From NCBI GenBank assembly GCA_963745835.1, contig CAVUZH010000018.1, positions 192,001-256,000 on the forward strand: a DNA stretch of 64,000 nucleotides, read 5' to 3'. Below the pieces are notes generated by a model, which worked only from the letters and a program-made list of their open reading frames with translations, was not told where the DNA came from and made no database searches. The DNA is from an uncultured delta proteobacterium. Lineage in GTDB: Bacteria > Desulfobacterota > Binatia > UBA9968. Below are positions 1 to 29,440 of the stretch, in pieces (position 1 is the first letter of the stretch; each line of letters opens with the position of its first letter). Position numbers and translations under genes: made by a program.

Positions 1-589
1 ATCGATCGGATGTCCAATATAGGTGTGATTTCGCGGGAGACCGCCATCAGCTATAGCCTGACCGGTCCGATCTTGCGCGCCAGCGGCGTCAACTATGATG
101 TCCGCAAAACCAATCCCGTATCTGGTTTACGATCAGCTCGATTTTATCGTGCCGCTGGGGACCAAAGGCGACAACTACGATCGCTTCGTCTGCCGCATTC
201 AAGAAATCGAACAGAGCATGAAGATCGTCGAGCAGGCGCTGAAAAGTCTGCCCGTCGGCCCCGTGTGGATTGAAGATCCGCGCTTCGTGCTGCCGGAGAA
301 AGAGAAGGTCTACAACAGCATCGAAGGTTTGATGCACCATTTTAAGATCATCATGGAAGGAATCAAGGTGCCGCCCGGAGAAACTTACTTTGCGGTGGAA
401 GGCGGCAACGGTGAATTGGGCTTTTATCTGGTCAGCGACGGCGCCGGGACGGCCGTATCGCGTGCGAGTGCGCCCGCCCTGTTTCTCGCCATGGGCGCTT
501 TTCATGAGATGATCAAGGGATACATGATAGCCGACATCGTGCCGACTTTCGGCATGGTCAATATGATCGGTGGGGAATGTGACCGGTAG
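1..589 (+). CDS. nuoD: NADH-quinone oxidoreductase subunit D, C-terminal part (runs off window; frameshift near 110, probably a sequencing error)
   Basis: ORFs 10..273 and 95..589 join: TGPILRASGVNYDVRK..PYLVYD..GDNYDR..EGLMHHFK..GELGFY..ADIVPTFG..GECDR*. Confidence 0.93.
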
Positions 590-665
590 AGTCAAAGTAG
601 AATCGTGTCATCGCGATCTTTCGCGGAAAATGGTCAATATGATCGGTGGAGAATGCGACCGGTAG
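554..665 (+). repeat. 36-bp direct duplication of the nuoD 3' end (554-589 and 630-665)
   Basis: ATGGTCAATATGATCGGTGG(G/A)GAATG(T/C)GACCGGTAG; 2 mismatches, both at synonymous third positions. Confidence 0.92.
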
Positions 666-792
666 CAGCTGCTGAAAAAGACTCATATGCTTCGTTGCGC
701 TCGTTCGCCTCGCTTCAACGTCTGAAGCGTACGCCTCAGCTCATCGAAGTTCGCGCGCCTCGCCTCTGAGATCTTTTTGAGCAGCCTGCTAG
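663..792 (+). mobile_element. ~125-bp MITE-like element, copy 1
   Basis: Ends TAGCAGCTGCTGAAAAA ... TTTTTGAGCAGCCTGCTAG (terminal inverted repeats); homologous copies at 49117, 56499 and 59865. Confidence 0.8.
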
Positions 793-846
793 CAGACTTT
801 TTCAGACAGCGCGTTAGGAGTTGTTTTAATAGAGAAGAATAATCGA

Positions 847-1324
847 ATGGCAGTGGAATTTTCTCCGGAAACGCTCGAAAAATTTGAAGAGACGGTGAGC
901 CGCTACCCAAAGAAAGAGGCGGCGATGCTTGCCAGTCTTGTATCTTGCTCAGCAAGAGTTCGGTTACCTGGGTGCCGAGGCGATTGACTACGTTGCCAGG
1001 CTGATGGGCCAATCGCCTGCCCGGGTGCACGGCGTGGTGAGCTTCTATACCATGTACAACATGAAGCCCATCGGCCGGCACCATATTCAGGTGTGCCGCA
1101 CGTTGTCGTGCGCATTAGGCGGCGCGGAGAAAATCACTGAGCTTCATCAAGACGAAAACTTGGCTATCGAACTCGGGCAGACGACTGCTGACGGGCGATT
1201 CACGTTATCGGAAGTGGAATGCCTGGCCTCGTGCGGAACCGCGCCGATGATGCAAATCAACGATGATTATTACGAAAACTTGAATGAAGAAAAGGTGGCC
1301 GAGATCCTCGATTCTTTGAAATAA
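847..1324 (+). CDS. nuoE: NADH-quinone oxidoreductase subunit E (frameshift near 929)
   Basis: ATG 847 MAVEFSPETLEKF..RYPKKEAAML joins ORF 929..1324, which has VCRTLSC and ECLASCGTAP [2Fe-2S] motifs. Confidence 0.93.
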
Positions 1325-1341
1325 TTTCATTCCTGAGAGCT

Positions 1342-2625: not shown

Positions 2626-2650
2626 AAGTGTTAGTGTCAGCTCCAATGCT
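2618..2650. repeat. Short inverted repeat between nuoF and nuoG
   Basis: AGCATTGGA ... TCCAATGCT. Confidence 0.6.
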
Positions 2651-2680
2651 CCACCAAGCTTAAGGCGAAGTTTATCTTTT

Positions 2681-5407: not shown

Positions 5408-5411
5408 GGCT

Positions 5412-12069: not shown

Positions 12070-12288
12070 ATGCGAACGGCGTTAATCACCGGGATGGTGC
12101 TCGCCCTTGGAATCGGACTATCCGCTTGCGGCAAAGATGATAAGGACAGTGCAACGCGCGACGCAGAAATTAAGAAGGCGCTTCAGGAAGGATCGCAACG
12201 AGAGAAACAGATGTATGAAGGAATGCAGAAAGGTGTCGAAAATCTGGAGAAGCAGTCGTCACCGCAAAAGCAAGAGAAGACTCAATAA
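12070..12288 (+). CDS. Small lipoprotein, hypothetical
   Basis: RBS AAGGA; lipobox LSAC; charged helical tail. Confidence 0.75.
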   Translation: MRTALITGMVLALGIGLSACGKDDKDSATRDAEIKKALQEGSQREKQMYEGMQKGVENLEKQSSPQKQEKTQ

Positions 12289-12496
12289 CTAGGCTTGCTG
12301 ATCATTCGCCTTCGGTTTCTTGCGTTTTGCTGCGACGGGACATCCTTAAAATATCGTCAGTAAAACGTCGAAATGGAATGTCACCGAGCAGGTACGGAAG
12401 AGTCTCTGATTGCAATTGCAGGGAATATTTCAAAGGGCCAGCACGATTTGCATCAGTTGAGCGGAAACTTGCAACAAGATACGCTAACGGGCTGGA

Positions 12497-13612
12497 ATGA
12501 ACGCCCTCCGATACTCTCTGATCATCTCCGTCTCAGCACATGCATTTCTCTTAATCTGGCTAACCTTCACAGTCCCTCCAAGGAACAACCGAGTTTCGCA
12601 CCTAGAGGTCGCGCTGATGTCGCCGCCGCCAAGCCTCTCAAAAAGCGAGGGCAGTTCCCCGGTGCAAACTCGACAGCTGGTCAACAGGAATCAACCTGCA
12701 GTCAGCAGACGGCCGCTTACCTCCCGTAACACGGGGGCACCGCCAGAAAGTCTCGAAAATTTAGCGCAGTCTGCTGAGCCTCTAGCTGTGGACGGCGGCA
12801 CCGCCCCATTCAGTGCGTCGGACGCCTCCGCCCTAGGTGATCAAGCGGGCGATATCGCTATAGGCTCTGGAAGCGCGGTTTCGGTGCCAGAAGACGGGAT
12901 CGCAGGCACAAAAGGAGCAACTTCGAGACGAGACGGATCATCCCGCGAGAGCGCCAGCGCACCAGCCGGATCATCCAGGAAAAGCTCCACGCCGTCGGAT
13001 ATCGACTCGGCTTCTGGCGCAGTGATCCCCGGCTACGTCATCGATGCTGCTGGTTATCGGCCTCCGGATGCTGGAGCCATATATCCAGAAGTCGATAAAT
13101 ACGTGCTCTACAGCGCTGACAAGCGGACCGCCATTAACGTACTTGGTACGGAAGTTTGTACTGAGGGCGAGTTTCTACGCAGCAAAGAAGCCGCGATGAT
13201 TTCCGAAATCAAAACCGACTATTCCAAATGCCGTTATCTGGATTTCGGAGATGAGTCAGTGTCAGTAACGTGCCCCCCCGAAGCACAGACCAAGATCATT
13301 CACCATAATTCGTATTTATCCTCGCCTCTCGTCTACAGTGTTCGTACTTGCCTCGAATACGACACGTCAAATTGTTACCTGACAACTGATCAGGAAACTG
13401 AACGAGAAATGTGCCGCATAGATTTCGAATATGAAGGTCTCTGGGGCGAAGGCACTAAATTCTTTTATCGATGTTCTAAGTCAGAATCGCGGAGCTATCG
13501 ACAGCCTCTGGAATACAACATTCGATGGTTTATGGAAGTCTATATAGAGGAGCGCGGTTTGAGGCGACGTGAAGTTCTTCGGGAAACCAGAGCGGTTCCT
13601 AGATGTGCGTAG
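12497..13612 (+). CDS. Membrane-anchored hypothetical protein: TonB-like N-terminal anchor, S/P/A/G-rich linker, Cys-rich C-terminal domain
   Basis: SLIISVSAHAFLLIWL (TonB-type S..H TM helix), low-complexity linker, 8 Cys in the last ~150 aa. Confidence 0.65.
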   Translation: MNALRYSLIISVSAHAFLLIWLTFTVPPRNNRVSHLEVALMSPPPSLSKSEGSSPVQTRQLVNRNQPAVSRRPLTSRNTGAPPESLENLAQSAEPLAVDGGTAPFSASDASALGDQAGDIAIGSGSAVSVPEDGIAGTKGATSRRDGSSRESASAPAGSSRKSSTPSDIDSASGAVIPGYVIDAAGYRPPDAGAIYPEVDKYVLYSADKRTAINVLGTEVCTEGEFLRSKEAAMISEIKTDYSKCRYLDFGDESVSVTCPPEAQTKIIHHNSYLSSPLVYSVRTCLEYDTSNCYLTTDQETEREMCRIDFEYEGLWGEGTKFFYRCSKSESRSYRQPLEYNIRWFMEVYIEERGLRRREVLRETRAVPRCA

Positions 13613-13818
13613 GTCCCTAAGTAGAACGTTAATGAAAGGATTTATGATAAGCGCCAGAAGCAGGGTGCCATCGACCCAAATTAGGAACGATTGCGACCGT
13701 TGGCTAAATTCCAAACCCACAGCCACCTGCTTAAACATCAGTTTAGTGGGCAACAATTGTGCGCGGGCAGTTTGAGGAGGATTAGGATGTTGGCAGGGGT
13801 TAAAACCTTGGCTCTTCG

Positions 13819-14712
13819 ATGATGACCACGGACCTGCAAACCGGCATGGCCTATGCTTTGTTGGCCGGTACCCTCTGGGGCATGGGTCCGCTCGCGCTCA
13901 AGCGCGCCTTGAAGCACACCAGTGTAGGAACGGCGACCTTGACCGAGCAATATCTATCGGTCTTGCTTCTTGGAGTGCTGGCGGCGTATCACGGCGAACT
14001 CGCTTATCTGGACTTTACCAGCCGCGCTTTCTGGGCGTTTTTTCTTGCCGGCGCCATCGGCGCCAGCTTCGGCAAGATTTTCTATTATAAGGGAATCGAT
14101 CGAGTCGGCGCGTCGAAAGCAACATCGGTGAAGAACAGTTCACCGATTCTGACGACCTTTCTTGCAGTCATTTTCCTTGGCGAAGAGATGTCCTGGTTGA
14201 TCCTGGCAGGAGTCCTGTTAATCGTCGCCGGCATCGCCGCTCTTACTCGCACCGAGAAAACCTCGACGGGAGGCCCCAATCGTCTCGAATATTTTTTGTT
14301 TCCGCTTCTCGCGGCGATTTGTTTCGGCATCAACCCAATATTCAAGAAGATCGGCATCAACGCGGTGAGCCTGCCGATACTCGGCGCTTTCATTACCCAA
14401 GCCACGGCATTGCTGGTGATGCTCACCCTCGGTCGGTTTTTTTCGGTCAAAGCAAAATGGGAGCCCATGCCGTTGAAGGCACTGGGGTTGGTGACCATTT
14501 CGAGCCTGACTGAAGCTCTCGGATCATTGTTCACGTTTTTCGCATTGATTCACGCGCCGGCGGTACTGGTTTCGCCGATGTGGCGCATCTCTCCGTTAGT
14601 CACGTTCGCGCTGGTGCGCTTTACCTTAAGAGGCATTGAAGTGGTGACATTACGCGACGGCCTGGCGGCGGGGCTCATTGTTGGTGGAGTCTTCGTTTTA
14701 ACTCGCGGCTAA
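13819..14712 (+). CDS. EamA/DMT family transporter
   Basis: About 10 TM helices in two repeats; FYYKGIDRVGASKAT, AVIFLGEE. Confidence 0.9.
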   Translation: MMTTDLQTGMAYALLAGTLWGMGPLALKRALKHTSVGTATLTEQYLSVLLLGVLAAYHGELAYLDFTSRAFWAFFLAGAIGASFGKIFYYKGIDRVGASKATSVKNSSPILTTFLAVIFLGEEMSWLILAGVLLIVAGIAALTRTEKTSTGGPNRLEYFLFPLLAAICFGINPIFKKIGINAVSLPILGAFITQATALLVMLTLGRFFSVKAKWEPMPLKALGLVTISSLTEALGSLFTFFALIHAPAVLVSPMWRISPLVTFALVRFTLRGIEVVTLRDGLAAGLIVGGVFVLTRG

Positions 14713-14723
14713 CGCCGCGAGTA

Positions 14724-14873: not shown

Positions 14874-14877
14874 GACG

Positions 14878-15195
14878 TCAGGAGTTCGGAGTTATCTCAA
14901 AAACCACTCGCTCCATGAGTGGCGGCGAATCTCGCAGCGAAAGAATCTCGCGGCGCAGTTTGTCGTCGGTGACTTGCCTGGCGGTGCAGGAAAGTTTTTT
15001 ACCCTTGACGTTTAGTTCTACCGCCGGGGTCTTGAGCATGTTCTGGCACCAGTGCTTGCCCTTTACTTTGCTCGAGGACGCGTAATAGCTGCCGTTGTGA
15101 TAAACCAAGCGTAATTCTACGGTCCTTGGCTGGCCGGTTTTTCGTCCGATTGTTGTCAGATCCGCTATCAAAGTCGATCCATTCTTGAAATCCAT
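14878..15195 (-). CDS. Nitroreductase-family deazaflavin (F420)-dependent oxidoreductase (Ddn-like)
   Basis: LTTIGRKTGQPRTVEL and HWCQNMLKTPAVEL match the Ddn/FDOR-A pattern; start MDFKNG at 15195. Confidence 0.8.
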   Translation of the reverse strand: MDFKNGSTLIADLTTIGRKTGQPRTVELRLVYHNGSYYASSSKVKGKHWCQNMLKTPAVELNVKGKKLSCTARQVTDDKLRREILSLRDSPPLMERVVFEITPNS

Positions 15196-16861: not shown

Positions 16862-17356
16862 GTGAATGAGCCAGTATCAAACCTGATGTCAGGCCGGCAA
16901 TATACGATTTCTATCAACCTGGCGCCAGAGCGTTTGCTCTACGCCGGTCCGCTCATCCCCGGCGCCTGGAGGCGTACGCGAGACGAAGAAGAGGTCGGCT
17001 CGGTAGGTGGAGAGATATTGATAGACACTGGCGCGTTCGGCGCGATGATCGATGATGATGTCGCCGATCATTTGCGCCTGCCGATACGCGGCACAAAGGA
17101 AATTCATGGAATTCACGGCTACGGCACAGTTCGCTGCTATCAAGCAAAACTTGTGCTTCCGGCACAGGATCCGATCGGAGAAGACTGTGAATTCACAACA
17201 ATTATTGAATGCATAGGCGTGCCTTCCTTGGCAGAGAAGAACCGAGAGCACGGCGTCAACGTTATCGGGATCATTGGCAGGCAGTTTTTGCAAAATGTCC
17301 ATCTGGAGATCGACGGCGCAACCGGCAGACTCAAGCTACTCATCAGTGATCGATAA
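16862..17356 (+). CDS. Clan AA (retropepsin-like) aspartyl protease
   Basis: ILIDTGA catalytic motif, flap-like IHGIHG, C-terminal GIIGRQFL. Confidence 0.8.
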   Translation: MNEPVSNLMSGRQYTISINLAPERLLYAGPLIPGAWRRTRDEEEVGSVGGEILIDTGAFGAMIDDDVADHLRLPIRGTKEIHGIHGYGTVRCYQAKLVLPAQDPIGEDCEFTTIIECIGVPSLAEKNREHGVNVIGIIGRQFLQNVHLEIDGATGRLKLLISDR

Positions 17357-17369
17357 GTAGATAATCCAC

Positions 17370-18128
17370 ATGGCAGAACGACAACAAGACGAAGTTGAAA
17401 AGCTGATTGCGGATAAGCTGCGTGATGCCGGAATTAAATTTGTCACGCAGCAGGCGATCGCGGGATTGGCGCCGGATTTCATCGTTTATGCTCCCGATGG
17501 CCGGCAGTTTATTGTTGAAGCTAAAAACTGGGACTTTCCAGGACTTAAAGCCGAGGCAAGCCGGCAAGCACAGCATTACCAGGATGCGGCGAAATCTGAC
17601 GGCGCCTTCATCGTGATTCCCTCGTTGAAGCGAGGCTCGCCCGACAAGGGCGTAGTAACCGTCGACGGCCTGGTGCCGGCGCTCAAGGCAGAGTTCGAAA
17701 ACAGCAAGGCACGCACGCACCCTACCGAAGCAACCAAGGTCAGCCGGATCGTTTTTGCGGCGATGCCGTTTGCGCCTCAGTATGAGGATGTATTTTTTAT
17801 CGCTATGCGCCAGGCCGCCGAGCAGGTGAGAGCAGTGTGCGAACGAGTCGATCGGCGCGAATTTCAAGGCAGCGTCGTCGATGAAATTCAGCGGCTGATT
17901 CGTCAATCGGTAGCGGTGATTGTCGATCTTTCCGAGGCCAAGCCGAACGTCCTCTATGAAGCCGGCTATGCTCATGCATTGAACAAGCCGTGCATCCATA
18001 TCTGTTCAACCTCGACCGAAAAACTCCCTTTCGATGTCAGCCACTGGAAGACGACGATGTATCATCCGGGCCAGACGCACAAATTGGCCAAAGAGCTGGC
18101 GCAGCGGCTCAAGGCGGTGCTCGATTGA
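17370..18128 (+). CDS. Fusion of a PD-(D/E)xK restriction-endonuclease-like domain and a nucleoside 2-deoxyribosyltransferase/TIR-like domain
   Basis: N-term APDFIV..FIVEAK; C-term VFAAMPF, VIVDLSEAKPNVLYEAGYAHALNKP, LPFDV. Confidence 0.75.
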   Translation: MAERQQDEVEKLIADKLRDAGIKFVTQQAIAGLAPDFIVYAPDGRQFIVEAKNWDFPGLKAEASRQAQHYQDAAKSDGAFIVIPSLKRGSPDKGVVTVDGLVPALKAEFENSKARTHPTEATKVSRIVFAAMPFAPQYEDVFFIAMRQAAEQVRAVCERVDRREFQGSVVDEIQRLIRQSVAVIVDLSEAKPNVLYEAGYAHALNKPCIHICSTSTEKLPFDVSHWKTTMYHPGQTHKLAKELAQRLKAVLD

Positions 18129-18277
18129 TTGGAACGTAATTAAGAAAACATGACGCAGTGACAATTGTGTTCATGGTGCGGCGGGCACGGCGGCACTTGT
18201 TTGCCAGGGAGACCTGGGGGCGAAGCTCAAGCGGCGAGATTATCCTGAAGAGGCGATCGGCAAAATCCTGCGCGGCA
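17926..18277 (+). repeat. ~350-bp direct repeat, copy 1 (3' end of the REase-NDT gene plus downstream DNA)
   Basis: Aligns with 19265-19620; 13 differences in the ~200-bp coding part. Confidence 0.92.
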
Positions 18278-18340
18278 ACTTACAACGGATCCTGCGTTAG
18301 GTATTGCCATAGTGATTTGCTTATGCCCGATTATAGGAGT
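18184..18340 (+). pseudogene. Remnant of a membrane-dipeptidase-like (M19) gene 3' end, copy 1
   Basis: Translates LKRRDYPEEAIGKILRGNLQRILR*VLP*; homologous to 19520-19625 and 21881-22050. Confidence 0.6.
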
Positions 18341-18514
18341 ACCGATTTCGATTTACGAGACCGAACAACCAAAGGTACCGACCTGACGGTGACGCTTGCG
18401 CTCAGCACATCGCCGTAGTGACTCGCCCATTCGCTGCGCCTTCAATTCACGGGGCAATCAGTAAGCTTCGCGCATGATTGGCCGAATCTTGAACAGCCAC
18501 ACAGCACTGATGTG

Positions 18515-18544
18515 TTGAGTTTATGACCTAAAAATGGTTATGAT
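18515..18544 (+). promoter_or_regulatory. Sigma70-type promoter of the TA operon, probably leaderless
   Basis: TTGAGT-18 bp-TATGAT ending 6 nt before ATG 18551; no SD; imperfect ATGACC..GGTTAT inverted repeat in the spacer. Confidence 0.55.
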
Positions 18545-18550
18545 CTAGTC

Positions 18551-18802
18551 ATGAATATAGTTAATGTGGCCATCCTGAAAGAAAAGCTGAGTTACTACCT
18601 TAACTTGGTCAAGTCGGGCGAAGAAGTCGTTGTGACCTCTCACCGGCACCAGGTCGCGCGTATTCTCCCTGTGACCACTCCTTCGGCTGAAATCATAGAA
18701 CCTACTCGTCCGGTCAAAGACTTACGAAAAGTAAAAGGTGTCAAGCTTCGTCGAACGGTCTCCGGCGTGAAATCACTTGTGGACGACCGTCGGCGCCGAT
18801 GA
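18551..18802 (+). CDS. Phd/YefM family antitoxin
   Basis: VNVAILKEKLSYYLNLVKSGEEVVVTSHRHQVARILP; ATGA overlap with the toxin gene. Confidence 0.92.
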   Translation: MNIVNVAILKEKLSYYLNLVKSGEEVVVTSHRHQVARILPVTTPSAEIIEPTRPVKDLRKVKGVKLRRTVSGVKSLVDDRRRR

Positions 18803-19218
18803 TTGTATATGTCGACACTTCCGTTGTCTTGCGCGTTCTCTTACACGAGTCAAACCCGGTCGGGATTTGGGGCCAATGGAACAAAGCCTATAGTAGTGCG
18901 TTGTGGCGTGTTGAGGCGTTGAGAACTGTGGACCGGCTCCGGTTAACTCACGAAATCTCCGATACCGAAGTCGCGGAGCTGGTGCGCGATATACAAATTA
19001 CCCATGAAACCTTCGCCATCCACCCCATCACGAACCAGGTTCTTCAGCGAGCAAGTGAAACCTTTCCGACGGTGGTTGGAACCTTGGACGCTATGCATCT
19101 CGCCACGGCGCTGTCGATACGCGAAGTCGAAAGCTTGGATTTATTGTTGACCCACGATTCTCAGCTCTCCACCGCCGCCAGAAGTCTCGGGTTCGAGGTT
19201 ATGGGAATCGATCAGTAA
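18799..19218 (+). CDS. vapC: PIN-domain (VapC-like) toxin
   Basis: VYVDTSV, TLDAMHLATA, LTHDSQLSTAARSLG. Confidence 0.92.
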   Translation: MIVYVDTSVVLRVLLHESNPVGIWGQWNKAYSSALWRVEALRTVDRLRLTHEISDTEVAELVRDIQITHETFAIHPITNQVLQRASETFPTVVGTLDAMHLATALSIREVESLDLLLTHDSQLSTAARSLGFEVMGIDQ

Positions 19219-19264
19219 TAAGGAGAACAAAATCGCACCCAGCCCTGAGATCATATCAAATGGC

Positions 19265-19620
19265 ATCTTTCCCAGGCCAAGCCGAATGTCCTCTATGAAG
19301 CCGGCTATGCTCATGCATTGAACAAGCCATGCATCCATATCTGTTCAACCTCGACCGAGAAACTTCCTTTCGATGTCAGCCATTGGAAAACGACAATGTA
19401 TCATCTGGGGCAGACACACAACTTAGCCAAAGAGCTGGCGCAGCGGCTCAAGGCGGTGCTCGATTGATTTGGAACGTAGCTGAGAAACGCGATTGGAGCG
19501 ATGATTGTGTTTGCCGGCGCTCTGGCATCGGCGCCAACTTGCGCGCTGGAGAAAATCTGGCGGCGCAGCTCAAGCAAAGAAATTATCCTGAAGCAGCCAT
19601 CGGCCTAATCCTCGGTGGCA
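19265..19620 (+). repeat. ~350-bp direct repeat, copy 2 (orphan 3' end of the REase-NDT gene plus dipeptidase remnant copy 2)
   Basis: Aligns with 17926-18277; no start codon or 5' part of the gene. Confidence 0.92.
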
Positions 19621-19768
19621 CCCATTTGAAATTTAGCATTTGCACCAAGCCAACGTGCAAACCTGCAACGACTCCGCGCCACTGAAAGAAATTTTGCATT
19701 TTCTCAGATGTCCAGGTAAAAGAACCTCGGCACATTCTAGTAAACCAACCGTCCTACTGGAGGTAGCT

Positions 19769-21307
19769 ATGTTCTGGAGCATTCGTCTTGCTCTATTATC
19801 GATATTCGTGGTGCTGGCGATCGCGCACGCGCCCGGCCATGCGCAGTCGCCGGCCGCGCTGCTCCGGCAGTCGGCCAACGCCATGGGCGGGTTAGCAGCG
19901 CTGAGCGCGCTAAAGAGCGAGGTGATTGAAAGCGAAGGCAAACAGTTCGATTCTTCTTCGACGGCGCAGCCGCTCGGTCCGACCCGGCAGATCACCACGT
20001 TTCGCTACACCCTCACACGCGATCTCATCCGACCCCGATTGCGGCTTGTGTGGGAATGGCAAAGCCTGGGCAGCAAGCAAGCCGGCCGCTTCGTTGAAAC
20101 CATCGACGGCTCGATTGGAATGCTGCAGCAAGGAGGAGACGGCGCCAAGCAAACCCGCCTGCATCCCGGCCGTTTGGCAACCCGCCTGCGCGAGGAGCAC
20201 CGCAATCCCGCAAGACTCGTCCTGGCTGCCTTGAACAACAAGAGTTTGCGCAACCGCGGTGATGTCCAGCTCGACGGCAAACGCCATACGGTGTTGTCCT
20301 TTAGTGAAAAGGACGATGAGTTTCGCATCTACATCGATGCGCAAACGCGGCTGCCGGCACAAACCGAAATTCTCGAGGACGATCCGCTCGAAGGCGACAG
20401 CAGCTACACGCTACGGTACGGCGACTGGCGCAAAGTCGACCGCGTGATGCTGCCGTTTAGTTTGCGCTATGAGCTGAACGGTAAAGTGCTGCAGGAGGAG
20501 CAGATCAGATCGATTCGCCACAACCTGGCGCTCGGCGGCGACGTCTTTGCCATCCCCGAGTCCGTGCGGAATGAAAAAACCGACGCTACGCCGATTGCAT
20601 CCCAATGGATTCTGCGCCGTATCGCGGGCAACGTCAGTTATCAAGACATGGGCCGCGCGCCCGCGGTCCAGTGGGTGGAACTCGCGCCCGGCGTGCACAA
20701 GATTCAAGGTAGTTCCCATGCGACGATCTTAGTCGAGATGGGTGATCATCTGGTCGCCGTTGAGGGTCCGCTGTACGAAGCCCGCACGGCGCCGGTGGTC
20801 AAGTCGATAAAGGAGCGATTCCCCGGAAAGCCGATCCGCTATGCGATCCCGACCCACCACCATCTGGATCACGCCGGCGGGATTCGCGCGTTTATGGCGG
20901 AAGGCGCGGCGATAGTCGTACCCTTCAACGCCCGGGCATTCTATGAGAAAGTCGCGCGTGCGCCGCACACGCGCAATCCTGACAGTCTGGAGCGCAGCAA
21001 ACGACCCGTGGTCATCGAAGCGTTCGGCGGCGGCCACAGAGTTCTCACCGATGGCGCGCGTCGGGTCGAGGTTCATCCGCTTCCGACCTCCCACGCGACA
21101 GACCTGGTCGTGGTATATCTGCCCAGGGAAAAATTGCTTATCGAAGCCGACCACATCAGCCCGCGAAACGGCGAGGTGCCGCCGGGCCCTCGGGTCAAGG
21201 AATTTGTCCAAGAGCTCGACAAGCTCAATCTCGATGTCGCGACGATCGTTGGCATCCATGGCGACCAGGCGAGTCTGGAGACCACCCGAACAGCAGCCAA
21301 GAAGTAG
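19769..21307 (+). CDS. Secreted MBL-fold metallo-hydrolase with an N-terminal beta-rich domain
   Basis: RBS GGAGG, signal peptide, THHHLDHAGG (HxHxDH), LLIEAD, VGIHG. Confidence 0.88.
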   Translation: MFWSIRLALLSIFVVLAIAHAPGHAQSPAALLRQSANAMGGLAALSALKSEVIESEGKQFDSSSTAQPLGPTRQITTFRYTLTRDLIRPRLRLVWEWQSLGSKQAGRFVETIDGSIGMLQQGGDGAKQTRLHPGRLATRLREEHRNPARLVLAALNNKSLRNRGDVQLDGKRHTVLSFSEKDDEFRIYIDAQTRLPAQTEILEDDPLEGDSSYTLRYGDWRKVDRVMLPFSLRYELNGKVLQEEQIRSIRHNLALGGDVFAIPESVRNEKTDATPIASQWILRRIAGNVSYQDMGRAPAVQWVELAPGVHKIQGSSHATILVEMGDHLVAVEGPLYEARTAPVVKSIKERFPGKPIRYAIPTHHHLDHAGGIRAFMAEGAAIVVPFNARAFYEKVARAPHTRNPDSLERSKRPVVIEAFGGGHRVLTDGARRVEVHPLPTSHATDLVVVYLPREKLLIEADHISPRNGEVPPGPRVKEFVQELDKLNLDVATIVGIHGDQASLETTRTAAKK

Positions 21308-21880: not shown

Positions 21881-22050
21881 CAATCGGCATCGGTGCCAAC
21901 TTGCTCGCTGCAGAAAATCGGAGGCGGAGCTCAAGCAAAGACATTATCCTGAATAGGCCATCAGCAAAATTCTCGGCGGCAATTTACTGCGGGTCCTGCG
22001 CCAGGTCCTCCCATGATCATTTGTTCCTGCCTGATGATCGAGAGTAATGA
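21881..22050 (+). pseudogene. Dipeptidase-like gene 3'-end remnant, copy 3
   Basis: ELKQRHYPE*AISKILGGNLLRVLRQVLP*; shares post-stop sequence with copy 1. Confidence 0.62.
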
Positions 22051-22298
22051 TCCAGACCTACGCGCACGTCAACTGGCGATATGGATCGATGCGGCCGCTC
22101 CGCTTCGGGCGCCGGGACGAGCCTCGAAATCGGTTTTGTCTTCCGGTTGACTGCCATCACTTCGGTCAACTTTGCTGTCGCCTCAGTGCCTATGACCCGG
22201 AAGAATAGTCGATACGAAAGCCATCCGCTAAGCCGCCGCCCCGTCTTCACCGAAGATTTGAATCCGCCACGCCTGGACCGTTTTCGTTTAGGCCCGAT

Positions 22299-24002: not shown

Positions 24003-24902
24003 TCAAGTTTGCCCCACCCAGTCGGAACCGGCAATTTCGCGCCAGCGACTGCGAACGTTTTCAAAGACTTCGACGGGCAATGTTCCGGCCTCCAAGGCCA
24101 GCGCATTTTCCGAAAACCTCTCAGACTTGGTTGTGCCGACAATCGCCGTATGAACACCTGAGACGGTAAGCACAAAGCGTAGCGCTGTTGCCACGGAGTC
24201 GTGCAGATCGCCGCGCAGAAAATCGTACTTGAGTTTCTGCAGTCGCTCCCAATAAGGATAGCCATAATCGTTCCGGGCAGGCCGGTCGCCATCGGCCCAA
24301 GCGACGTTTGCCACCGGCCGCTTCGCAATCACCCCCATGTTTCGTTTCTTTGCCAGAGGCAATGTTAGATCGAGCGCTTCCTGATCAGCAATGTTGATAG
24401 ACGTTTGCAACGAATCGAACTGGCCGCTGTTAACCGCATACAGTGCTGCTTGGCTGTCCCCGCTGTACCCGATGAAGCGGGTGTAGCCACGCTCGCGTGC
24501 TCGCTTGAGAAACTCGATCACTTCACCTTTACGCAGCTCGTCTTCCGAACAGCTGTGGAGCTGTAGCAAGTCGACATGATCCGTCTTCAGCCGTCTAAGG
24601 CTTCTCTCGATAGATTTCCAAAGCGAAGACGGGCGCCAATCCGGATAACTCCATCCTCGTTCATGGCCGCATTTGGTAAAGAGATAGTAATCGCCTCGTC
24701 GAGCGCTGATCGCGTTTCCGATCAATTCCTCACTGGTGACGTAACACTCGGCCGTATCGATGACGTTGACCCCGGCGTCGAGAGCACGATTCAACAATTT
24801 GCTCACAGAGGCGAGTGATGCTCGCTCATAGCCGATCTCCGAGCCGCCGAAGCCGAGAACACTAACATTCATATCGGTTTTGCCAAACCGGCGCTTTTCC
24901 AT
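24003..24902 (-). CDS. Aldo/keto reductase
   Basis: VSVLGFGG, IDTAECY, LFTKCG, SLRRLKTDHVDLLQLH. Confidence 0.95.
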   Translation of the reverse strand: MEKRRFGKTDMNVSVLGFGGSEIGYERASLASVSKLLNRALDAGVNVIDTAECYVTSEELIGNAISARRGDYYLFTKCGHERGWSYPDWRPSSLWKSIERSLRRLKTDHVDLLQLHSCSEDELRKGEVIEFLKRARERGYTRFIGYSGDSQAALYAVNSGQFDSLQTSINIADQEALDLTLPLAKKRNMGVIAKRPVANVAWADGDRPARNDYGYPYWERLQKLKYDFLRGDLHDSVATALRFVLTVSGVHTAIVGTTKSERFSENALALEAGTLPVEVFENVRSRWREIAGSDWVGQT

Positions 24903-24917
24903 TTTTTACCTTAAAGG

Positions 24918-25115
24918 ACAGTGCCCAGCGACAGTGGGTCACGTCTTGCAACGACACATTTGCAGCTCTCCAGACGCTCGCCGATCACCCAACTTTCTTG
25001 CTCGCGCTGACCGAATGCAATTCACTCAAATTTCGGTTTCTCTTTTAGATAATACTTCGAGAGCAGCGGTCGGTAACGCTCCATGAGTTCCTTATTGAGA
25101 TATGTCGGCGGCTTT
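24918..25115 (-). repeat. ~195-bp direct repeat: orphan copy of the amidohydrolase 3' end plus ~100 bp downstream
   Basis: Matches 29245-29440; encodes the identical peptide KPPTYLNKELMERYRPLLSKYYLKEKPKFE* with 3 synonymous changes. Confidence 0.93.
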
Positions 25116-25188
25116 GGCCTGGGATCACTTCCGCCATACGTGCCAAGGTATGCGGTGGATACCTCATGCCTCGAAGCGGCGTTCCCAA

Positions 25189-25809
25189 TTATTTTTTCGG
25201 AAACAGATTTTGCGCGGCGAGCGCTTTCGTGATCGTTTGCACATAGGACCTTATAGCCGCTTGCACGTTTGTCGGCTCCTTCGTTTTGAGGGTGCCGGTC
25301 CATACCAATTCGTTCTTGGCGACATCATAGAGCGCAGTCTCCGAGGTGTATTCGTTGTAACGGTAAGGGCCGGATGTCCCGGGAATTCCAGACCAAGCAG
25401 CGCCGGCATTTGAGCCGAAGATCCCGAACGAAATTTCCGGTCCTACTGTAGGGTAGTTGGTCTTCTCTTCCACCTTGACTGATCGCATAAAGAGCAAGCC
25501 GTCGGCCCGGGCTTTTTGCGCGGCCTGTTTGAGGTTGTTTTCATTCGTCTCATCATTCTCCGGCATGTACCGATAGCTCGGCGATGCGTTGACGCCCACT
25601 GCCGCTAGTTGAGTCACGAACTCGTCTTCGAAATTGCGCCGCACGCTGACATCCCCGCTTGGACCTCCAATCATCAGTCGCTGCAAGGAGCCCGAAGTCT
25701 GCGCGGGATTACGCCATTCACTGACGATTGGGGTAGCGGTCGAACAACCGTTGAGAGTGAGGGTGATGAAAAGAATTTCCACAATGCCTAAGAGCAACGT
25801 CTGCTTCAT
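25189..25809 (-). CDS. Lipoprotein, hypothetical (DUF4136-like)
   Basis: Lipobox LNGC; RRNFEDEFV, ETALYDV..LVWTG. Confidence 0.75.
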   Translation of the reverse strand: MKQTLLLGIVEILFITLTLNGCSTATPIVSEWRNPAQTSGSLQRLMIGGPSGDVSVRRNFEDEFVTQLAAVGVNASPSYRYMPENDETNENNLKQAAQKARADGLLFMRSVKVEEKTNYPTVGPEISFGIFGSNAGAAWSGIPGTSGPYRYNEYTSETALYDVAKNELVWTGTLKTKEPTNVQAAIRSYVQTITKALAAQNLFPKK

Positions 25810-26369
25810 GGCCGGATGTTCGCACTAAATCAACAGTCGTTACAAGACTCTCCTTAAAAAGGTCCGGTTGCGGAAATTCACCAAGCACACGCGAAGATCA
25901 AGCACCGGTTCTTTGAGGTAGCGAACAAGCGCAAAATGGCCACGATCTTTCACGAGGAGGTCTGGGCCAGCAAAGGAAGCCTAACGGCATGCGGACATAA
26001 GTACTATGAAATGGGCCGGCGGGCCCGCGGATCTATGCCAAAAATCGTTAGCGGCGTGCATTCTAAGGACCTAGCGTGGCGCACGCAATTAAATTTGACC
26101 TGGCCACTAATCTTAGAAACCGCAGCAGAGATTGCGCCGGAACTATTGAAGAAGGGCCGATAAGGTTATTCGATAGCTAATTGAATACGTCTCAGCCGGT
26201 GTTCTACGCTGTTCTACGTTCCCGCGCTTTCGGGCTGAGCTAGTGCAGCGTGCAGCATTACTGCATCCGACTGTTGCCTTCGCTTGATCGATGATGACTC
26301 GTTCGATCCTTTCTACGAAATCTGATGAGACTGGTTTATAGATAGTTGCAAAAATAACGTCAGCACCAA

Positions 26370-27440
26370 TTACGGCATGCTAACGTACCCTTCATTAACC
26401 AGATAATTTTTAATTGCCTCGGCGACAGCAAGATGACCTGCAGGTTCCCAATGCCCGCTCGATCTGAAAGCTTCTCCTTTTGCTCTTCTTTCAGCAAAGT
26501 GGGGTCTCGTAGAAAAACATCTGGCTTTTTCATTTAGCCGGCACAAGGTGAGCATGTACGCCTCACCTCGGGTCACGGCGACGTCCATGGCGATTTCTCT
26601 TGCTCGCGGGAGATATGCCAGTATTGGAATTGCATGGACGCTGTCGACTAACTTTATCATCGCGGTCAATATGGCGCTCGTAATGTCCTCCATTTCTTTC
26701 TCTCGAAGCCCTAATAAGCTTTTTACTCTGTAGTGTATTAATGAAGATATATCGGCAATCCTCGGTCTGCTCCAATCCCGTTGGAGGATGTCCTGGGGAC
26801 GTGGAACCGGCGTGCCTGTCAACTTAAGCTCACCTCCCTTTAGGACAAAGCGAGGTTTCGCAAAGTCTCTGAATTCGAGTAGATTTCTAGACATATCTAG
26901 CGGCAGAAAACCTAAGATAACGATATCCGGCTGGTATCTGACTCCTTCTTCTCGAAGAAGAATCAACATCTGATCATGGCCGTAGCCGTGTACGCCCATG
27001 TTGATGATTTCTGTATGCGGCAGCATTTGTTGAAGATAGTAACAATATGTTTCGTCATCGCTCACTTCATCACCGAAAGTAAACGAATCTCCGAGTACCA
27101 ATATTCGTTGTTTGTTTTTGGTATAGGGGAAGTTCTTCTTGCCTCTAAGACCTTTAGAATTCGTGTTTAAAATCTTATTGTCGAATACTCTTACGTCTTT
27201 GAGATCGGGCTTGGGTCGCCATCCTTTGGAAGGATCATAGATGTCAAATGTGTAGTAGGCTTCCGTACTAGAATATTGATGTCTCTGAACCCAATTGCGA
27301 CGGTGCGTATAATCCTCATTTGCCTGGAGACGTTGAGCAACTTGAGGTATTGAAAAAGCCAGCCTAGCAAAGCCCTCAAATAAGAAGGCTAAGAAACCGA
27401 CATATCCAAGAACCAAAAAAAATTTCCGCGTCCTGCTCAT
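26370..27440 (-). CDS. SGNH/GDSL hydrolase family protein with an N-terminal TM helix
   Basis: TNSKGLRG, LVLGDSFTFG, NMGVHGYG, GHWEPAGH. Confidence 0.88.
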   Translation of the reverse strand: MSRTRKFFLVLGYVGFLAFLFEGFARLAFSIPQVAQRLQANEDYTHRRNWVQRHQYSSTEAYYTFDIYDPSKGWRPKPDLKDVRVFDNKILNTNSKGLRGKKNFPYTKNKQRILVLGDSFTFGDEVSDDETYCYYLQQMLPHTEIINMGVHGYGHDQMLILLREEGVRYQPDIVILGFLPLDMSRNLLEFRDFAKPRFVLKGGELKLTGTPVPRPQDILQRDWSRPRIADISSLIHYRVKSLLGLREKEMEDITSAILTAMIKLVDSVHAIPILAYLPRAREIAMDVAVTRGEAYMLTLCRLNEKARCFSTRPHFAERRAKGEAFRSSGHWEPAGHLAVAEAIKNYLVNEGYVSMP

Positions 27441-27602
27441 TTTGCATCAATTGGTTGCTGGTCCGGAACCTTCACCTTAGATCACCATCAAAACTCCACC
27501 GAGCCCGAATGGGAGCGCGAATGCTTTTTTGACGCCGGGCGGATGCGTGCAGCCTCTTTAGGTTCACGCGATTTTTCGAGTGGCGCAGGCTGGTGGCCGT
27601 TA

Positions 27603-28500
27603 CTACAACATTGCCCTCCAGACTCGATAGAAACGGTATTTCAGAAAAAATGGTCGAAGAATAATCGCTTCCCTTATCGCTTCCAGAGCTCTGTTCCTTT
27701 CACCAATTTTCCAGCGCCATTTCGCGAGTCTATAAAAACGGTGGGCCTTGCGCCTGTTGATATGGTGGCGACCGAGAATTTTGATGGACTCGGGGAACTC
27801 CTGAACTAGTTTGTCGATAACCTTTAGGTTCTCTAATTGTCTAAGCTCCTCGTTACCCCCGATGCTTCCTTGATGCCGGCGATAAAAAAACACTACCTTA
27901 TCCAGATAAGCAACCGGGAAGCGAATGAAAACCCTAAAAGCCAAATCCAAATCCATGGCGATTCGTAATGTCTCATCGAGTCCGCCAATGGTCAAAAGAA
28001 CCTGCCTGGAAAGAAGCGTTGCCTGCAGACGAAGGATACTCACGTCGAAAAGATCCACCAGCTTCACTCCGTCTTGGGCCAGCCGCTTAGATTTCTCCAA
28101 GGGAATGATAGTCTTTGTTTTTGGACCTCCAACATAACCGCCATTGGCGAAAACCATGCCGAGTTCATTGCTTTTTTTCACAATGCCGTAGAGACTTTCC
28201 AGATGATTTCGCCGCACAGATATCGTCGGAATCCTGAATAGAGATCCAATTCGCGCGAGCATTCTGGATGCCGACATTTCTTGCCGCAGAGGGGCCGCGG
28301 TTCTCCTGACGGATATAGCGCAGAATATGACCATATGACTTCACCAGCGCTTCGGTCTCATCGGTTGAACCGTCGTCCACCACGATAATCTCGAAATCGC
28401 GAAATGTCTGCGTCACGATGCTATCGAGCGTTTCTCTTAGCAAACTTGCTCGATTGTACGTCGCTATAACTACTGAGATGAGTGGGGTTCTAATAGGCAT
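27603..28500 (-). CDS. Glycosyltransferase family 2 (frameshift near 28210)
   Basis: ISVVIATYNRA, IIVVDDGSTD, NRGPSAARN, QDSDD; C-terminal GGLDE..DLDL..FYRRH in ORF 27603..28334. Confidence 0.88.
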
Positions 28501-28867
28501 CGAAGATAGTAATTTTCTCAACCGATTCTTCTACCCTCTGTTCTGAGTAGCGAAGATTCGGTCTTGTGCTCTGGGGTATGGCAGGCGCTCCCATGGAAAA
28601 CCAGCGGCGCGATCGGCCCAATGCTTTTAGAAGCTTACCACTCGGTGGCATAACAAAAACAGGAGTGACAAGAACGAGGATCACCGGGATCTCTGCACCT
28701 TCTCTTCGTCTAATTCGCTCTCGATATCGGTGCAAGTGACTGCAGCTGACGACCTCGCTTTCGTATCTTCTCGTTGGAATTTCGCTCGGCCCCTCTCTTG
28801 TGGGCATGATCCAATTAGAGCCTTCCAACTGCCTGACTCTTGGAAATAGCAACTGAAGTCCCGGTAG

Positions 28868-29246
28868 TCATTTCGCTTTATGGGACTGAAGGTCCATTAC
28901 CGCCTTCAGACGAAGCAATACAAGCCGGTGGATAGACGATTCACTCACCCGTGTGAGGATGGGGAGAGAATGTCTGGTCGGAAGCGAGCCCGCTCGGCAA
29001 TTCGAATTTGTGGATCCGAAAGTGGAGATGCCGGCTCTTTTGCCTTTCAAGTGCAAGGGCTGCTTAATCTCCGCGGCGCGCCATCAAATGAAACGGCGAT
29101 ACGTTGCCGCTTGCTGCGATGATAACCACTTCGCTGCCGGCGGCGGTTGCTGCAATTGCCGCTATAGCGCCGGGAATAATCGGCGCGCTACCTGCCAACA
29201 TGGCGGCCACCATCCGCGTGCTGCCACCGATGCGAACCAATTCCAC
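28868..29246 (-). pseudogene. NMT1/SsuA-like substrate-binding protein fragment
   Basis: ELVRIGGSTRMVAAMLAGS..LKGKRAGISTFGS across frameshifts; truncated exactly at the repeat boundary. Confidence 0.65.
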
Positions 29247-29440
29247 AGTGGGTCACGACGGTGGGTCAGCTTGCAATGACACATTTGCAACTTTCCAGGC
29301 GCGCGCCTATCGCCCAACTTTCTTGCTCGTTCTGGTCGAATGCAATTCACTCGAATTTCGGTTTCTCTTTTAGATAATACTTAGAGAGCAGCGGTCGGTA
29401 ACGCTCCATGAGTTCCTTATTGAGATAAGTCGGCGGCTTT
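29245..29440 (-). repeat. ~195-bp direct repeat, copy containing the functional amidohydrolase 3' end
   Basis: Matches 24918-25115. Confidence 0.93.

Follow-up and report, generated by a model that had tools for sequence, protein, structure and literature searches.

Downstream of several ordinary genes in the genome of this soil bacterium lie inserted genes and, beyond these, a remnant copy of the end of the respective gene. We analysed a 64,000-nt stretch of it (the window), in which the original prediction had named three such genes, nuoD, a gene called here REase-NDT and an M20 peptidase gene. All three pairs of tail and orphan tail lie where it had placed them. The shortest comprises:

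554 to 589, forward strand: attached nuoD tail, the last 11 codons and the stop, as read from the sequence
590 to 629, forward strand: spacer of 40 nt between the two tails
630 to 665, forward strand: orphan nuoD tail, directly abutting a MITE-like repeat

The open reading frame at 95-589 matches PF00346 (Complex1_49kDa, Pfam) and is nuoD. A second copy of its last 36 nt (554-589) lies at 630-665 and differs at two sites, both synonymous, and the only match of the spacer in the whole genome is to itself (blastn-short). In an alignment with G002, G007 and G010, these genomes have a single nuoD tail, and this functional tail occupies the position of the window's orphan. Two other species of the genus, G001 and G004, also have the scar with the same spacer, while G005 carries the attached tail and the same spacer, after which its contig ends.

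The second pair is the most elaborate and has the following parts:

17370 to 18128, forward strand: resident gene of 252 amino acids (REase-NDT), with sub-threshold Pfam and PADLOC matches only
17926 to 18128, forward strand: attached tail T_A, read as the incoming allele that travels with the cargo
18129 to 18420, forward strand: spacer and orphan tail H_A of a Peptidase_M19 dipeptidase (about 18135-18357), assigned to the incoming unit
18551 to 19218, forward strand: cargo, a Phd/YefM antitoxin (18551-18802) and a PIN toxin (18799-19218), by Pfam
19219 to 19264, forward strand: linker up to the cargo/orphan junction, which is identical in the window and in the metagenome contig L093
19265 to 19469, forward strand: orphan tail T_B, read as the displaced resident tail, its frame still open in the window
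19470 to 19620, forward strand: resident spacer and truncated M19 tail remnant H1_B, 84% identical to L093
19640 to 21307, forward strand: open reading frame of the metallo-beta-lactamase fold (Pfam), cargo between M19 remnants B and C
21884 to 22065, forward strand: third M19 tail remnant H_C, with an in-frame stop read by eye from the alignment
18131 to 41387, no strand: variable block of 23 kb, with the REase-NDT pair at its left edge and the M20 pair inside

We use the name REase-NDT provisionally because the Nuc_deoxyrib_tr and pPIWI_RE_REase Pfam matches are both below cut-off; relatives of the gene are found in Binatia genomes. The Phd/YefM match, at 29.0 bits, is slightly under its cut-off of 29.8. 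The tail at 17926-18130 is repeated at 19265-19469 with 94% identity, and BLAST extends the repeat to 17926-18277 against 19265-19620 (83% over 361 columns). The coding parts of T_A and T_B differ by 10 synonymous and 3 non-synonymous changes. Two of the M19 remnants have counterparts in other genomes: H_A corresponds to the 3' end of M19 genes that are full-length in G002 and G003, and H1_B shares 85-88% identity with the ends of the M19 genes in G002, G003 and G007, while the stretch 19524-19620 recurs at 21886-21981 with 84.5% identity (BLAST). In seven other Binatia contigs (L058, L060-L064 and L069) a distance of 0.7-3.5 kb separates the REase-NDT gene from the genes that occupy 41.4-46.3 kb of the window, and short-read contigs from three studies (X1, X5 and X6) have the empty-site form, with position 18094 joined to 19489.

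The third pair lies on the reverse strand:

29256 to 30852, reverse strand: M20 peptidase gene (29347-30852, PF01546 above cut-off) with its attached tail and downstream repeat (29256-29440)
25116 to 29255, reverse strand: cargo of 4.1 kb without a recombinase (Pfam)
25189 to 25809, reverse strand: DUF4136-like open reading frame of the cargo, Pfam match below cut-off
26370 to 27440, reverse strand: GDSL-like open reading frame of the cargo, Pfam match below cut-off
27603 to 28521, reverse strand: GT2 glycosyltransferase of the cargo, split over two frames (Pfam)
within 25116 to 29255, reverse strand: further unnamed open reading frames of the cargo
24929 to 25115, reverse strand: orphan M20 tail (coding part 25022-25115) and about 93 nt of former downstream DNA (BLAST)

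Here the two copies, 29256-29440 and 24929-25115, are 90% identical over 187 columns (BLAST) and 4,141 nt apart. They differ by three synonymous and no non-synonymous changes in 31 codons, and by 14 differences in the 93 columns of the non-coding part.

Recounting confirmed exactly the totals reached earlier by hand for the three pairs, namely 15 synonymous and 3 non-synonymous changes. This synonymous share (15 of 18) departs from the neutral expectation of 21% (p = 4e-8). It also departs from the share of about 34% expected if a tail, or a long target site, had been duplicated in place and the spare copy had then decayed (p = 2.5e-5; p = 0.0025 for the REase-NDT pair alone); tested singly, nuoD (p = 0.035) and M20 (p = 0.0095) contribute little. 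The claim that both tails were once functional alleles is thus upheld, since the synonymous bias rejects decay in place and the REase-NDT orphans diverge like a gene body. Duplication in place is rejected for the REase-NDT pair by this bias and by diverged orphans around near-identical cargo (see below), and for the three pairs together we hold it to be improbable, even though the repeat near 46 kb and possibly the nuoD scar, with its 36 nt and two differences, could have arisen by slippage or local duplication, and the nuoD orphan of G004 has two further changes that would alter residues. A diversity-generating retroelement, in which a variable repeat at a gene end is paired with a template repeat, would likewise place a near-identical 3'-end repeat nearby. 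The likeness ends with this geometry: no reverse transcriptase is encoded among the 61 scanned open reading frames of the window, and most differences are synonymous, with all four bases involved, so we reject this explanation and give it a negligible chance.

The origin of the two tails is seen most directly by comparing the window with L093, which is colinear with window positions 17071-20496 at 95% identity, both tails included; this two-lineage comparison covers one pair of the three. The gene bodies are 91.7% identical (pS 0.298, pN 0.02). The attached tails, by contrast, are 97.5% identical (pS 0.112), followed by the spacer and M19 scar H_A at 98.3%, phd at 99.6% (pS 0.016) and PIN at 98.6% (pS 0.040), after which the orphan tails fall back to 88.3% (pS 0.381, pN 0.032), with 17 synonymous and 5 non-synonymous changes between them. 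The shifts in identity occur within about 40 nt of the ends of the repeat unit. Because bodies and orphans have diverged while attached tail and cargo are near-identical, it follows that in each lineage the arrival of the same tail-plus-cargo unit orphaned the lineage's own functional tail. For REase-NDT this identity mosaic directly demonstrates what had been proposed for all three genes, that an incoming tail with cargo displaced the resident one.

Four further independent soil metagenome contigs (L095-L098) have two tail copies each, and L094, which begins within the PIN gene, continues from it into an orphan tail, so that 6 of the 80 loci listed (L093-L098) have a two-tail or PIN-orphan structure; those of L093 and L095-L098 are 87-95% identical to the window. 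Orphan tails decay after displacement: in L094-L098 they carry frameshifts, a deletion of 23 nt, an insertion of 27 nt or a stop. L097 has a further toxin-antitoxin pair, ParE with its antitoxin, flanked by duplicated copies of a segment made up of PIN tail, linker and tail head. In this contig the middle orphan shares 72% identity with the attached tail and the orphan farthest downstream 91%, against the expectation for duplication in place. Relatives of the Phd/PIN pair lack a flanking repeat at 69 of the 80 listed loci, many of which have short flanks; the toxin-antitoxin pair itself therefore does not generally move by tail displacement.

Similar structures recur elsewhere in the source assembly (G000). 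The genome contains 105 low-copy local direct-repeat pairs, 21 of them with a gene-tail signature and 8 with a gene-head signature (two pairs are in both lists). The genome-wide pN/pS is 0.28, a value that includes pairs probably read in the wrong frame. At the DAHP-synthase locus two alternative segments stand in tandem with one junction joining them; G006 shows this architecture too, and a junction of that type also occurs in G001.

G000 is 9.3% contaminated and, at 7.28 Mb, larger than the 3.9-5.5 Mb usual in the genus, and its nuoD and nuoE carry 1-nt indels relative to both G001 and G004. Some untested genome-wide pairs may therefore be artefacts of a noisy assembly. Two strain haplotypes set in tandem by a long-read metagenome assembler would, moreover, also look like a pair of functional alleles and differ mostly synonymously. 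For the nuoD and REase-NDT pairs such a chimera is refuted, as both recur in independent assemblies, the latter with decayed orphans, and the DAHP-locus architecture and junction type are likewise found in G006 and G001. Short-read contigs with zero differences span 18087-19083 and 18101-18654, across the junctions on the attached-tail side, and the cargo/orphan joints offer no common sequence for an assembler overlap. At the M20 pair, short-read contigs span 28222-29397 and 28944-29307, on one side of the insertion only, and neither a filled nor an empty site was found among 81 genomes of the family, so that outside support against a chimera is partial there. As a general explanation, an assembly fault is very improbable.

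The prediction that no integrase, tRNA attachment site or common core accompanies the scars held over 61 open reading frames of the window, 145 elsewhere and 17 sets of junctions. A Pfam scan found no recombinase or transposase among the 61; in 14 further loci, the 145 open reading frames contain none except a sub-threshold IS110 fragment at one locus edge. No motif or core is common to the 17 sets of junctions, and the REase-NDT unit has no terminal inverted repeats. These results weigh against islands of the kind that e14 forms between icd and the icdC pseudogene in Escherichia coli K-12 (excerpted in PMC13626634), in which the recombinase would have been lost or would act in trans on cargo-only satellites that use a gene tail as attachment site: each of the 17 loci would then need a separate specificity, and the repeats range from 36 to >600 nt. 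However, the geometry is the same, and the identical cargo/orphan junction in window and L093, with identity breaks at the unit ends, is equally expected from a site-specific recombinase in trans. The genome also has 13 matches to the tyrosine recombinase family PF00589, none within the window, and a small number of other repeat pairs adjoin or enclose such a match (for example, C14:196079 beside the 42-nt pair 195936/212050). We consider such islands unlikely, though the strongest of the rivals.

Taken together, these data support the original interpretation overall. The pairs are probably scars of tail displacement that proceeds independently of a recombinase, by Campbell-type homologous integration or by homology-facilitated illegitimate recombination (HFIR). 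A related Binatia lineage would supply DNA in which a gene 3' end and some downstream DNA are joined to cargo, and a crossover inside the resident gene's tail would leave the incoming tail, then the cargo, then the resident tail as a decaying orphan. At REase-NDT the moving unit would be one repeat period of 1,339 bp, consisting of tail, spacer with the old M19-tail scar, Phd/PIN pair and linker, without a recombinase of its own. It may be looped out as a circle by presumably RecA-dependent homologous recombination between tail copies, or be carried on a fragment, and a Campbell-type single crossover in the tail could return it to an empty-site genome; no circular form of the unit was observed. 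The first junction of every unit would necessarily require one illegitimate joining, that is, HFIR. The toxin-antitoxin cargo would penalise loss of the unit by recombination between the repeats and may thus stabilise it. Repeats of 200-350 nt that are about 90% identical recombine inefficiently, and the 36 nt at nuoD are near the lower length limit for homologous recombination; both points count against tail displacement.

The insertion mode is known in kind, as both models, a circle with homologous recombination and HFIR, have been proposed for rhs and type VI secretion (T6SS) loci. In the excerpted text of Jackson et al. 2009 (PMC2935791), displacement of rhs C-terminal tips is attributed to homologous recombination of a small circle on which part of the conserved gene resides, without an integrase. 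As here, a laterally acquired tip with downstream genes shunts the old tip downstream, leaving an intact gene with detached copies of its 3' part beyond it. In rhs, non-homologous toxin domains accompanied by immunity genes form the tips (same excerpt), whereas the tails described here are near-identical alleles, the cargo consists of toxin-antitoxin or metabolic genes, and many unrelated, ordinary genes of one genome are affected, among them nuoD, the M20 peptidase and DAHP synthase. The excerpt of Kirchberger et al. 2017 (PMC5361080) describes T6SS effector-immunity arrays of Vibrio cholerae, also built by displacement, in which modules are added successively downstream of a conserved anchor and orphaned remnants are retained; no integrase was found, and HFIR with one homologous anchor and one illegitimate joint is proposed. 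There, selection maintains the complete orphan immunity gene, in contrast to the non-functional, decaying gene tails of the window. Unlike in those arrays, one junction is shared here by two lineages, and movement of a prefabricated unit explains this better than a succession of illegitimate joinings.

In e14, as excerpted in PMC13626634, the element likewise supplies a replacement 3' end, the resident end becomes a pseudogene at the far side and the two ends differ by conservative changes, but e14 brings a site-specific recombination system of its own and is excised when the SOS response is induced, unlike the recombinase-free units described here. HFIR in transformable bacteria (de Vries & Wackernagel 2002; Prudhomme et al. 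2002; Meier & Wackernagel 2003, as cited in excerpts of PMC5361080 and PMC2884548) also traps foreign DNA beside a homologous anchor without a mobile-element enzyme; the cases in these excerpts are laboratory events. The microcin H47 island of E. coli is similarly small, flanked by direct repeats and mobile without encoding a site-specific recombinase, but in the excerpted accounts its repeats are short and attachment-like, not gene tails (PMC3191183, PMC5426353). In the present genome the displacement acts on ordinary genes, genome-wide.

A further repeat in the window had been put forward as a fourth case:

46250 to 46515, reverse strand: tandem triplication at the junction of a CoxS tail and a CoxL start, free of cargo

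The triplication is real, with three tandem units of 81-89 nt at about 74% column identity that cover the end of the CoxS-like gene and the start of the CoxL-like gene. It holds no cargo and is a phenomenon separate from the displaced tails.

Three genes in the window carry, downstream of their current 3′ end (the attached tail), a second copy of that same end (the orphan tail), with other DNA (the cargo) between the two. Reading of the sequence and BLAST confirmed these pairs, as originally predicted, in the following arrangement.

554–589, repeated at 630–665 (+): nuoD tail; the 40-nt spacer between the copies is unique in the genome
17926–18130, repeated at 19265–19469 (+): REase-NDT tail; 94% identity
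17926–18277 against 19265–19620 (+): BLAST extent of the REase-NDT repeat, which continues through the spacer and a gene remnant
29256–29440, repeated at 24929–25115 (−): M20 peptidase tail; 90% identity (BLAST)

The host genes are nuoD, an M20 peptidase gene and a small gene (252 aa) of unassigned role, for which the name REase-NDT reflects sub-threshold Pfam and PADLOC matches only. In PADLOC, the REase-NDT protein and the neighbour upstream of it gave matches, all of them weak; the toxin-antitoxin genes that follow gave none. Codon counting reproduced exactly the earlier hand count of synonymous and non-synonymous differences between the copies (2/0 for nuoD, 10/3 for REase-NDT and 3/0 for M20). 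The pooled pairs comprise 70.9 synonymous and 259.1 non-synonymous sites, and 15 of their 18 differences are synonymous, a bias with a probability of 4e-8 under neutrality and of 2.5e-5 if a tail had been duplicated in place and one copy had then decayed. Within the M20 repeat, 14 of 93 columns differ in the non-coding part, compared with 3 of 93 coding bases, which is the pattern expected of two alleles under protein-level constraint. A triplicated junction at 46.2–46.5 kb, formerly counted as a fourth case, does not belong here: it is a tandem triplication, without cargo, of an 81–89-nt unit that runs from the end of a CoxS-like gene into the start of a CoxL-like gene; this is a phenomenon distinct from the tail pairs.

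A serious rival explanation is that the duplications are false and arose where two haplotypes were mixed in the assembly. The genome concerned (G000; 7.28 Mb in 25 contigs, with the window sequence found in soil and rhizosphere metagenomes) gives cause to consider such a chimera, because it is noisy and has a contamination of 9.3% (CheckM-type). Compared with G001 and G004, two other species of the genus that agree with each other, nuoD and nuoE of the window contain single-base indels at 117, 449, 482, 931, 1140 and 1158–1159. These are most likely long-read consensus errors and not pseudogene lesions, and owing to this noise many genes of the window appear frameshifted; the splits of nuoF and of a GT2 gene (27603–28521) resemble them. 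Against a chimera stands the presence of the same structures in independent sequences: that of nuoD in G001 and G004, that of REase-NDT in the soil metagenome contigs L093 and L095–L098, and that of a DAHP-synthase locus on another G000 contig in the related genomes G006 and G001. Outside support for the M20 pair is partial.

At nuoD, the comparison with sister genomes recovered both forms of the site, the empty one with a single tail in G002, G007 and G010 and the filled one in G001 and G004. The latter two (91–92% identity) have tail, 40-nt spacer and tail as in the window, and G005 has the attached tail and spacer as far as its contig end. In the three genomes with a single tail, a MITE-like repeat of about 140 nt follows directly; as the orphan copy of the window adjoins this repeat, the orphan occupies the place of the original tail. 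The orphan of G004 bears two changes that would replace residues. A whole-genome search of G000 for a donor of the spacer returned no second copy. The MITE-like repeat itself recurs in the window (664–810, 49126–49226, 56562–56650 and 59881–60016) and has many copies in every matching family genome, at least 18–25 per genome in many of them among the matches listed. Beside further copies, at 58798–63215, lie three tandem solute-binding protein paralogues, 63–78% identical in repeat families.

For the REase-NDT locus, a scan of metagenome contigs for the PIN toxin gave 80 loci, six of which match the window past the toxin-antitoxin pair. One of them, L093 (3427 nt), aligns colinearly with window 17071–20496 at 95% identity, both tails included; L095–L098 have two or three copies of the tail each, and L094 begins within the PIN gene, which is followed by the orphan tail. 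Among the pieces listed, short-read contigs without a single difference span 18087–19083 (run X1) and 18101–18654 (run X9). The empty-site form, in which 18094 is joined to 19489 through the same 31 letters, occurs in one contig each of runs X1, X5 and X6, from three studies, and bears a more distant allele of the tail (13 differences in 137 nt in X1). In G005 a single tail is followed by spacer-like DNA. Short-read contigs of two different runs both terminate at 19083, within the PIN gene, suggesting that a variant or a repeated word lies at this position. At the M20 locus, short-read contigs span 28222–29397 and 28944–29307 (among the pieces listed). Neither a filled nor an empty M20 site was found in 8 genomes of the genus or 81 of the family; the DNA after the M20 gene in G005 matches G000 contig C21, not the window, and no M20 gene accompanies the aldo-keto-reductase neighbours in G058 and G096. 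A short-read joint of 24854 to 30024, seen in one run at depth 3 with a side of 21 nt, is weak and was set aside.

We then compared the REase-NDT locus of the window with that of L093, part by part.

Window compared with L093 along the REase-NDT locus (nucleotide identity; where coding, pS, pN and synonymous/non-synonymous differences by Nei-Gojobori counts)
Gene body: 91.7%; pS 0.298; pN 0.018; 38.5/7.5
Attached tail: 97.5%; pS 0.112; pN 0; 5/0
Spacer with old scar: 98.3%
phd: 99.6%; pS 0.016; pN 0; 1/0
PIN: 98.6%; pS 0.040; pN 0.006; 4/2
Linker: 95.7%
Orphan tail: 88.3%; pS 0.381; pN 0.032; 17/5
Resident spacer: 84.1%
Next gene, metallo-beta-lactamase fold: 96.4%

The contrast in pS demonstrates, at this locus only, what the original prediction had assumed for all three, namely that an incoming tail with its cargo displaced the resident tail. 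The breaks in identity lie no more than about 40 nt from where one repeat period (17926–19264, 1339 nt) begins and ends, and the junction between cargo and orphan is identical in the two sequences. The two orphans carry separate private sets of changes, most of them silent. Had the tail been orphaned before the lineages split, about 47 non-synonymous differences would be predicted (our own estimate, 0.3 × 156 sites); five are observed, so each lineage retained as its orphan its own tail, which was functional until recently. The attached tail and the cargo of the REase-NDT locus are a recently shared immigrant. In the older carriers the orphans are visibly dead, through a 1-nt and a 23-nt deletion in L094 and L096, a stop and several replacements in L095, a 27-nt insertion in L097 and frameshifts in L098. 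The identity profile of G000 against G005 along the REase-NDT gene showed no sharp break and was uninformative.

The gain of small blocks of genes by bacterial genomes is usually ascribed to integrases or transposases, or to plain double crossovers between conserved flanking sequences. That no integrase and no shared core would be visible was borne out: the 61 ORFs of the window include no recombinase or transposase, none of the 13 PF00589 matches in the genome falls within the window, and the 145 ORFs of 14 other loci contain no recombinase apart from a sub-threshold IS110 fragment at the edge of one locus. The junctions of 17 loci have no motif or core in common, and the REase-NDT unit (tail, scar of a Peptidase_M19 tail, Phd/PIN toxin-antitoxin pair and linker) has no terminal inverted repeats. 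Among the junction sequences compared, the joints between cargo and orphan show no homology to the sequence on the gene side. Some other repeat pairs of G000 do adjoin an integrase, for example at C14:196079, indicating that classical islands coexist with the tail structures. Repeats flank the toxin-antitoxin pair in only 11 of 80 loci that carry relatives of this pair, five of the 11 being the REase-NDT locus, and are no general feature of the toxin-antitoxin loci of 8 relatives, among them one of the unpublished genome G018 on which no conclusion here depends; the pair is cargo here, and not the engine.

Two further classes were considered and rejected. Integron arrays have an IntI integrase with attI, and each of their cassettes ends in an attC hairpin site; the window has no integrase, and its repeats are locus-specific gene tails without inverted-repeat ends. 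Diversity-generating retroelements have a reverse transcriptase and a template and variable repeat differing at adenines; no reverse transcriptase is present among the window ORFs, and the differences between the tails are mostly synonymous and involve all base types.

The data establish the structures and, at REase-NDT, where the two tails came from; the way in which the unit moves is one that we infer. One illegitimate joint beside a homologous anchor (homology-facilitated illegitimate recombination, HFIR) could make the tail-cargo-tail structure; such a joint is expected to lack homology and usually to fall at a microhomology. Recombination between the two tails would then free a circle of exactly one repeat period, and a single crossover with the tail at an empty site would re-insert it, each time with the same junction and with the recipient's tail left as the orphan. 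The toxin-antitoxin cargo may select against loss of the unit through recombination between the repeats. This circle with a single crossover fits the identical junction, the breaks of identity at the ends of the unit and the fresh orphans. These three features are equally what a site-specific recombinase in trans would produce; the junction common to the window and L093 is expected equally from a defined core and from a ready-made unit spread by homologous recombination. Against such a recombinase stand the lack of a core common to many loci and of any recombinase in cis, and the recombinase-free route is the likely one.

Similar structures recur at the locus itself, in the window and across the genome. 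In L097, a second module consisting of a ParE toxin and an 'addiction module' antitoxin lies between two copies of a segment comprising the PIN tail, the linker and the head of the tail. This second pair (L097 2753–4011, minus strand) results in an array of three tails, and records one more displacement at this locus, in a different lineage. Three remnants of a Peptidase_M19 tail are found in the window, one of them within the incoming REase-NDT unit:

18135–18357: Peptidase_M19 tail remnant
19485–19620: Peptidase_M19 tail remnant
21884–22065: Peptidase_M19 tail remnant

A full-length M19 gene is present in G002 and G003, and a DNA-level search of G000 found none. Self-BLAST of the genome (pairs within 30 kb, at least 82% identity, at most 1500 nt) gave 240 direct-repeat pairs, 105 of them with no more than three copies. 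In a crude ORF screen 37 of these 105 resemble a gene tail with its orphan; a second screen returned 21 tail and 8 head signatures, two pairs counting as both. Both screens are rough, as they use raw ORFs of a frameshift-rich assembly, and no pairs were removed from either count. Over all 37 pairs, none dropped and some clearly misframed, pS is 0.14 and pN 0.039. A 361-nt repeat on contig C13 (G000:C13:564739–565739; L040 10140–11140; 92% identity, copies 280 nt apart) is, unlike other pairs, without synonymous bias (11.5 synonymous and 14.5 non-synonymous differences); a template/variable repeat pair is one candidate reading of it.

The DAHP-synthase locus (L034, G000:C8:105200–127800) reads X-tail, cargo 1, Y-tail, X′-tail, cargo 2, Y′-tail, that is, two alternative segments set in tandem at a single junction and bounded by the same two tails, on the left that of DAHP synthase and on the right that of a 1038-aa protein. 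G006 (L193) has this architecture in common with G000 at 85–93% identity, and G001 (L194) has the end of cargo 2 followed by a Y′-tail and then an X-tail, with the same composite junction between tails in another order. A histidine-phosphatase gene likewise has a duplicated tail in both G000 (L026, G000:C14:98700–105100) and G006 (L192), with different intervening DNA and order of parts. In G006 the gene tail directly joins the sequence that follows the orphan in G000, and a second tail copy of its own lies 1.6 kb further on. These differences suggest repeated events at one gene.

One may tentatively go further, to a reading that we hold to be possible yet rather doubtful: gene tails of Binatia might act as portable homology arms, so that 'tail plus cargo' units circulate among related lineages as recombinase-free cassettes, looping out and re-entering by host homologous recombination, building tail-bounded arrays (the REase-NDT toxin-antitoxin pairs, the X- and Y-tail segments of the DAHP locus) and preserving in older tail scars, the M19 remnants among them, the trace of former insertion sites. 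If true, this would amount to integron-like gene gain without an integrase, with toxin-antitoxin cargo guarding against repeat-mediated loss.

Altogether, the results support the overall interpretation first proposed, with the two-tail origin established at the REase-NDT locus, and they place the mechanism within a known kind, as a variant of it and not as a new mode. The geometry is that of element e14 between icd and the icdC pseudogene, with a working 3′ end and an orphan copy on either side of inserted DNA. e14 has its own recombination system (PMC13626634), whereas in the loci scanned here no tyrosine or serine recombinase gene lies within the inserted DNA next to a repeat. The process corresponds to the 'C-terminal displacement' proposed for rhs genes, in which homologous recombination acts through a circular intermediate (PMC2935791). 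A further parallel is the displacement of effector-immunity modules at T6SS loci, where HFIR was proposed (PMC5361080); HFIR has likewise been suggested as the origin of small variable segments in E. coli (PMC2884548). As in the rhs, CDI and T6SS systems, an intact gene is followed by one or more dissociated 3′ copies. Unlike in rhs and T6SS, ordinary genes of metabolism and respiration are the targets here, and their tails are near-identical alleles (90–94% identity, at most three residue changes), not alternative, non-homologous toxin tips with immunity genes. The evidence is more direct than usual, since substitution patterns identify the donor and the resident parts. Limited literature searches, which do not prove absence, found among the papers listed no description of tail displacement in Binatia/Binatota, nor, under gene remnants, direct repeats and circular intermediates, any for ordinary genes.

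The REase-NDT case is a natural and datable scar in which the substitution pattern separates the incoming from the resident piece, and a single unit, with no recombinase in its vicinity, entered two lineages at the same position. If the phenomenon is general, orphan tails would provide a cheap, alignment-free marker of recent gene gain, and of the donors involved, for metagenome-assembled genomes of uncultured soil phyla, and host recombination alone would account for a share of the 'islets' that lack mobility genes. Caution is advisable, as annotation will mistake orphan tails and the short ORFs arising from them for genes, and short-read assemblies can break where they lie.

Finally, some other features of the window concern gene content without mobility genes. 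The 23-kb block at 18131–41387 comprises metabolic genes and no mobility gene, and in 7 other contigs from Binatia a distance of 0.7–3.5 kb separates the REase-NDT gene from the genes found at 41.4–46.3 kb in the window. The stretch at 12277–14888, with an unnamed ORF of 371 aa and a gene for an EamA transporter, is represented in G002 by about 100 nt between otherwise colinear flanks, a further small insertion or deletion in which no mobility gene is involved.
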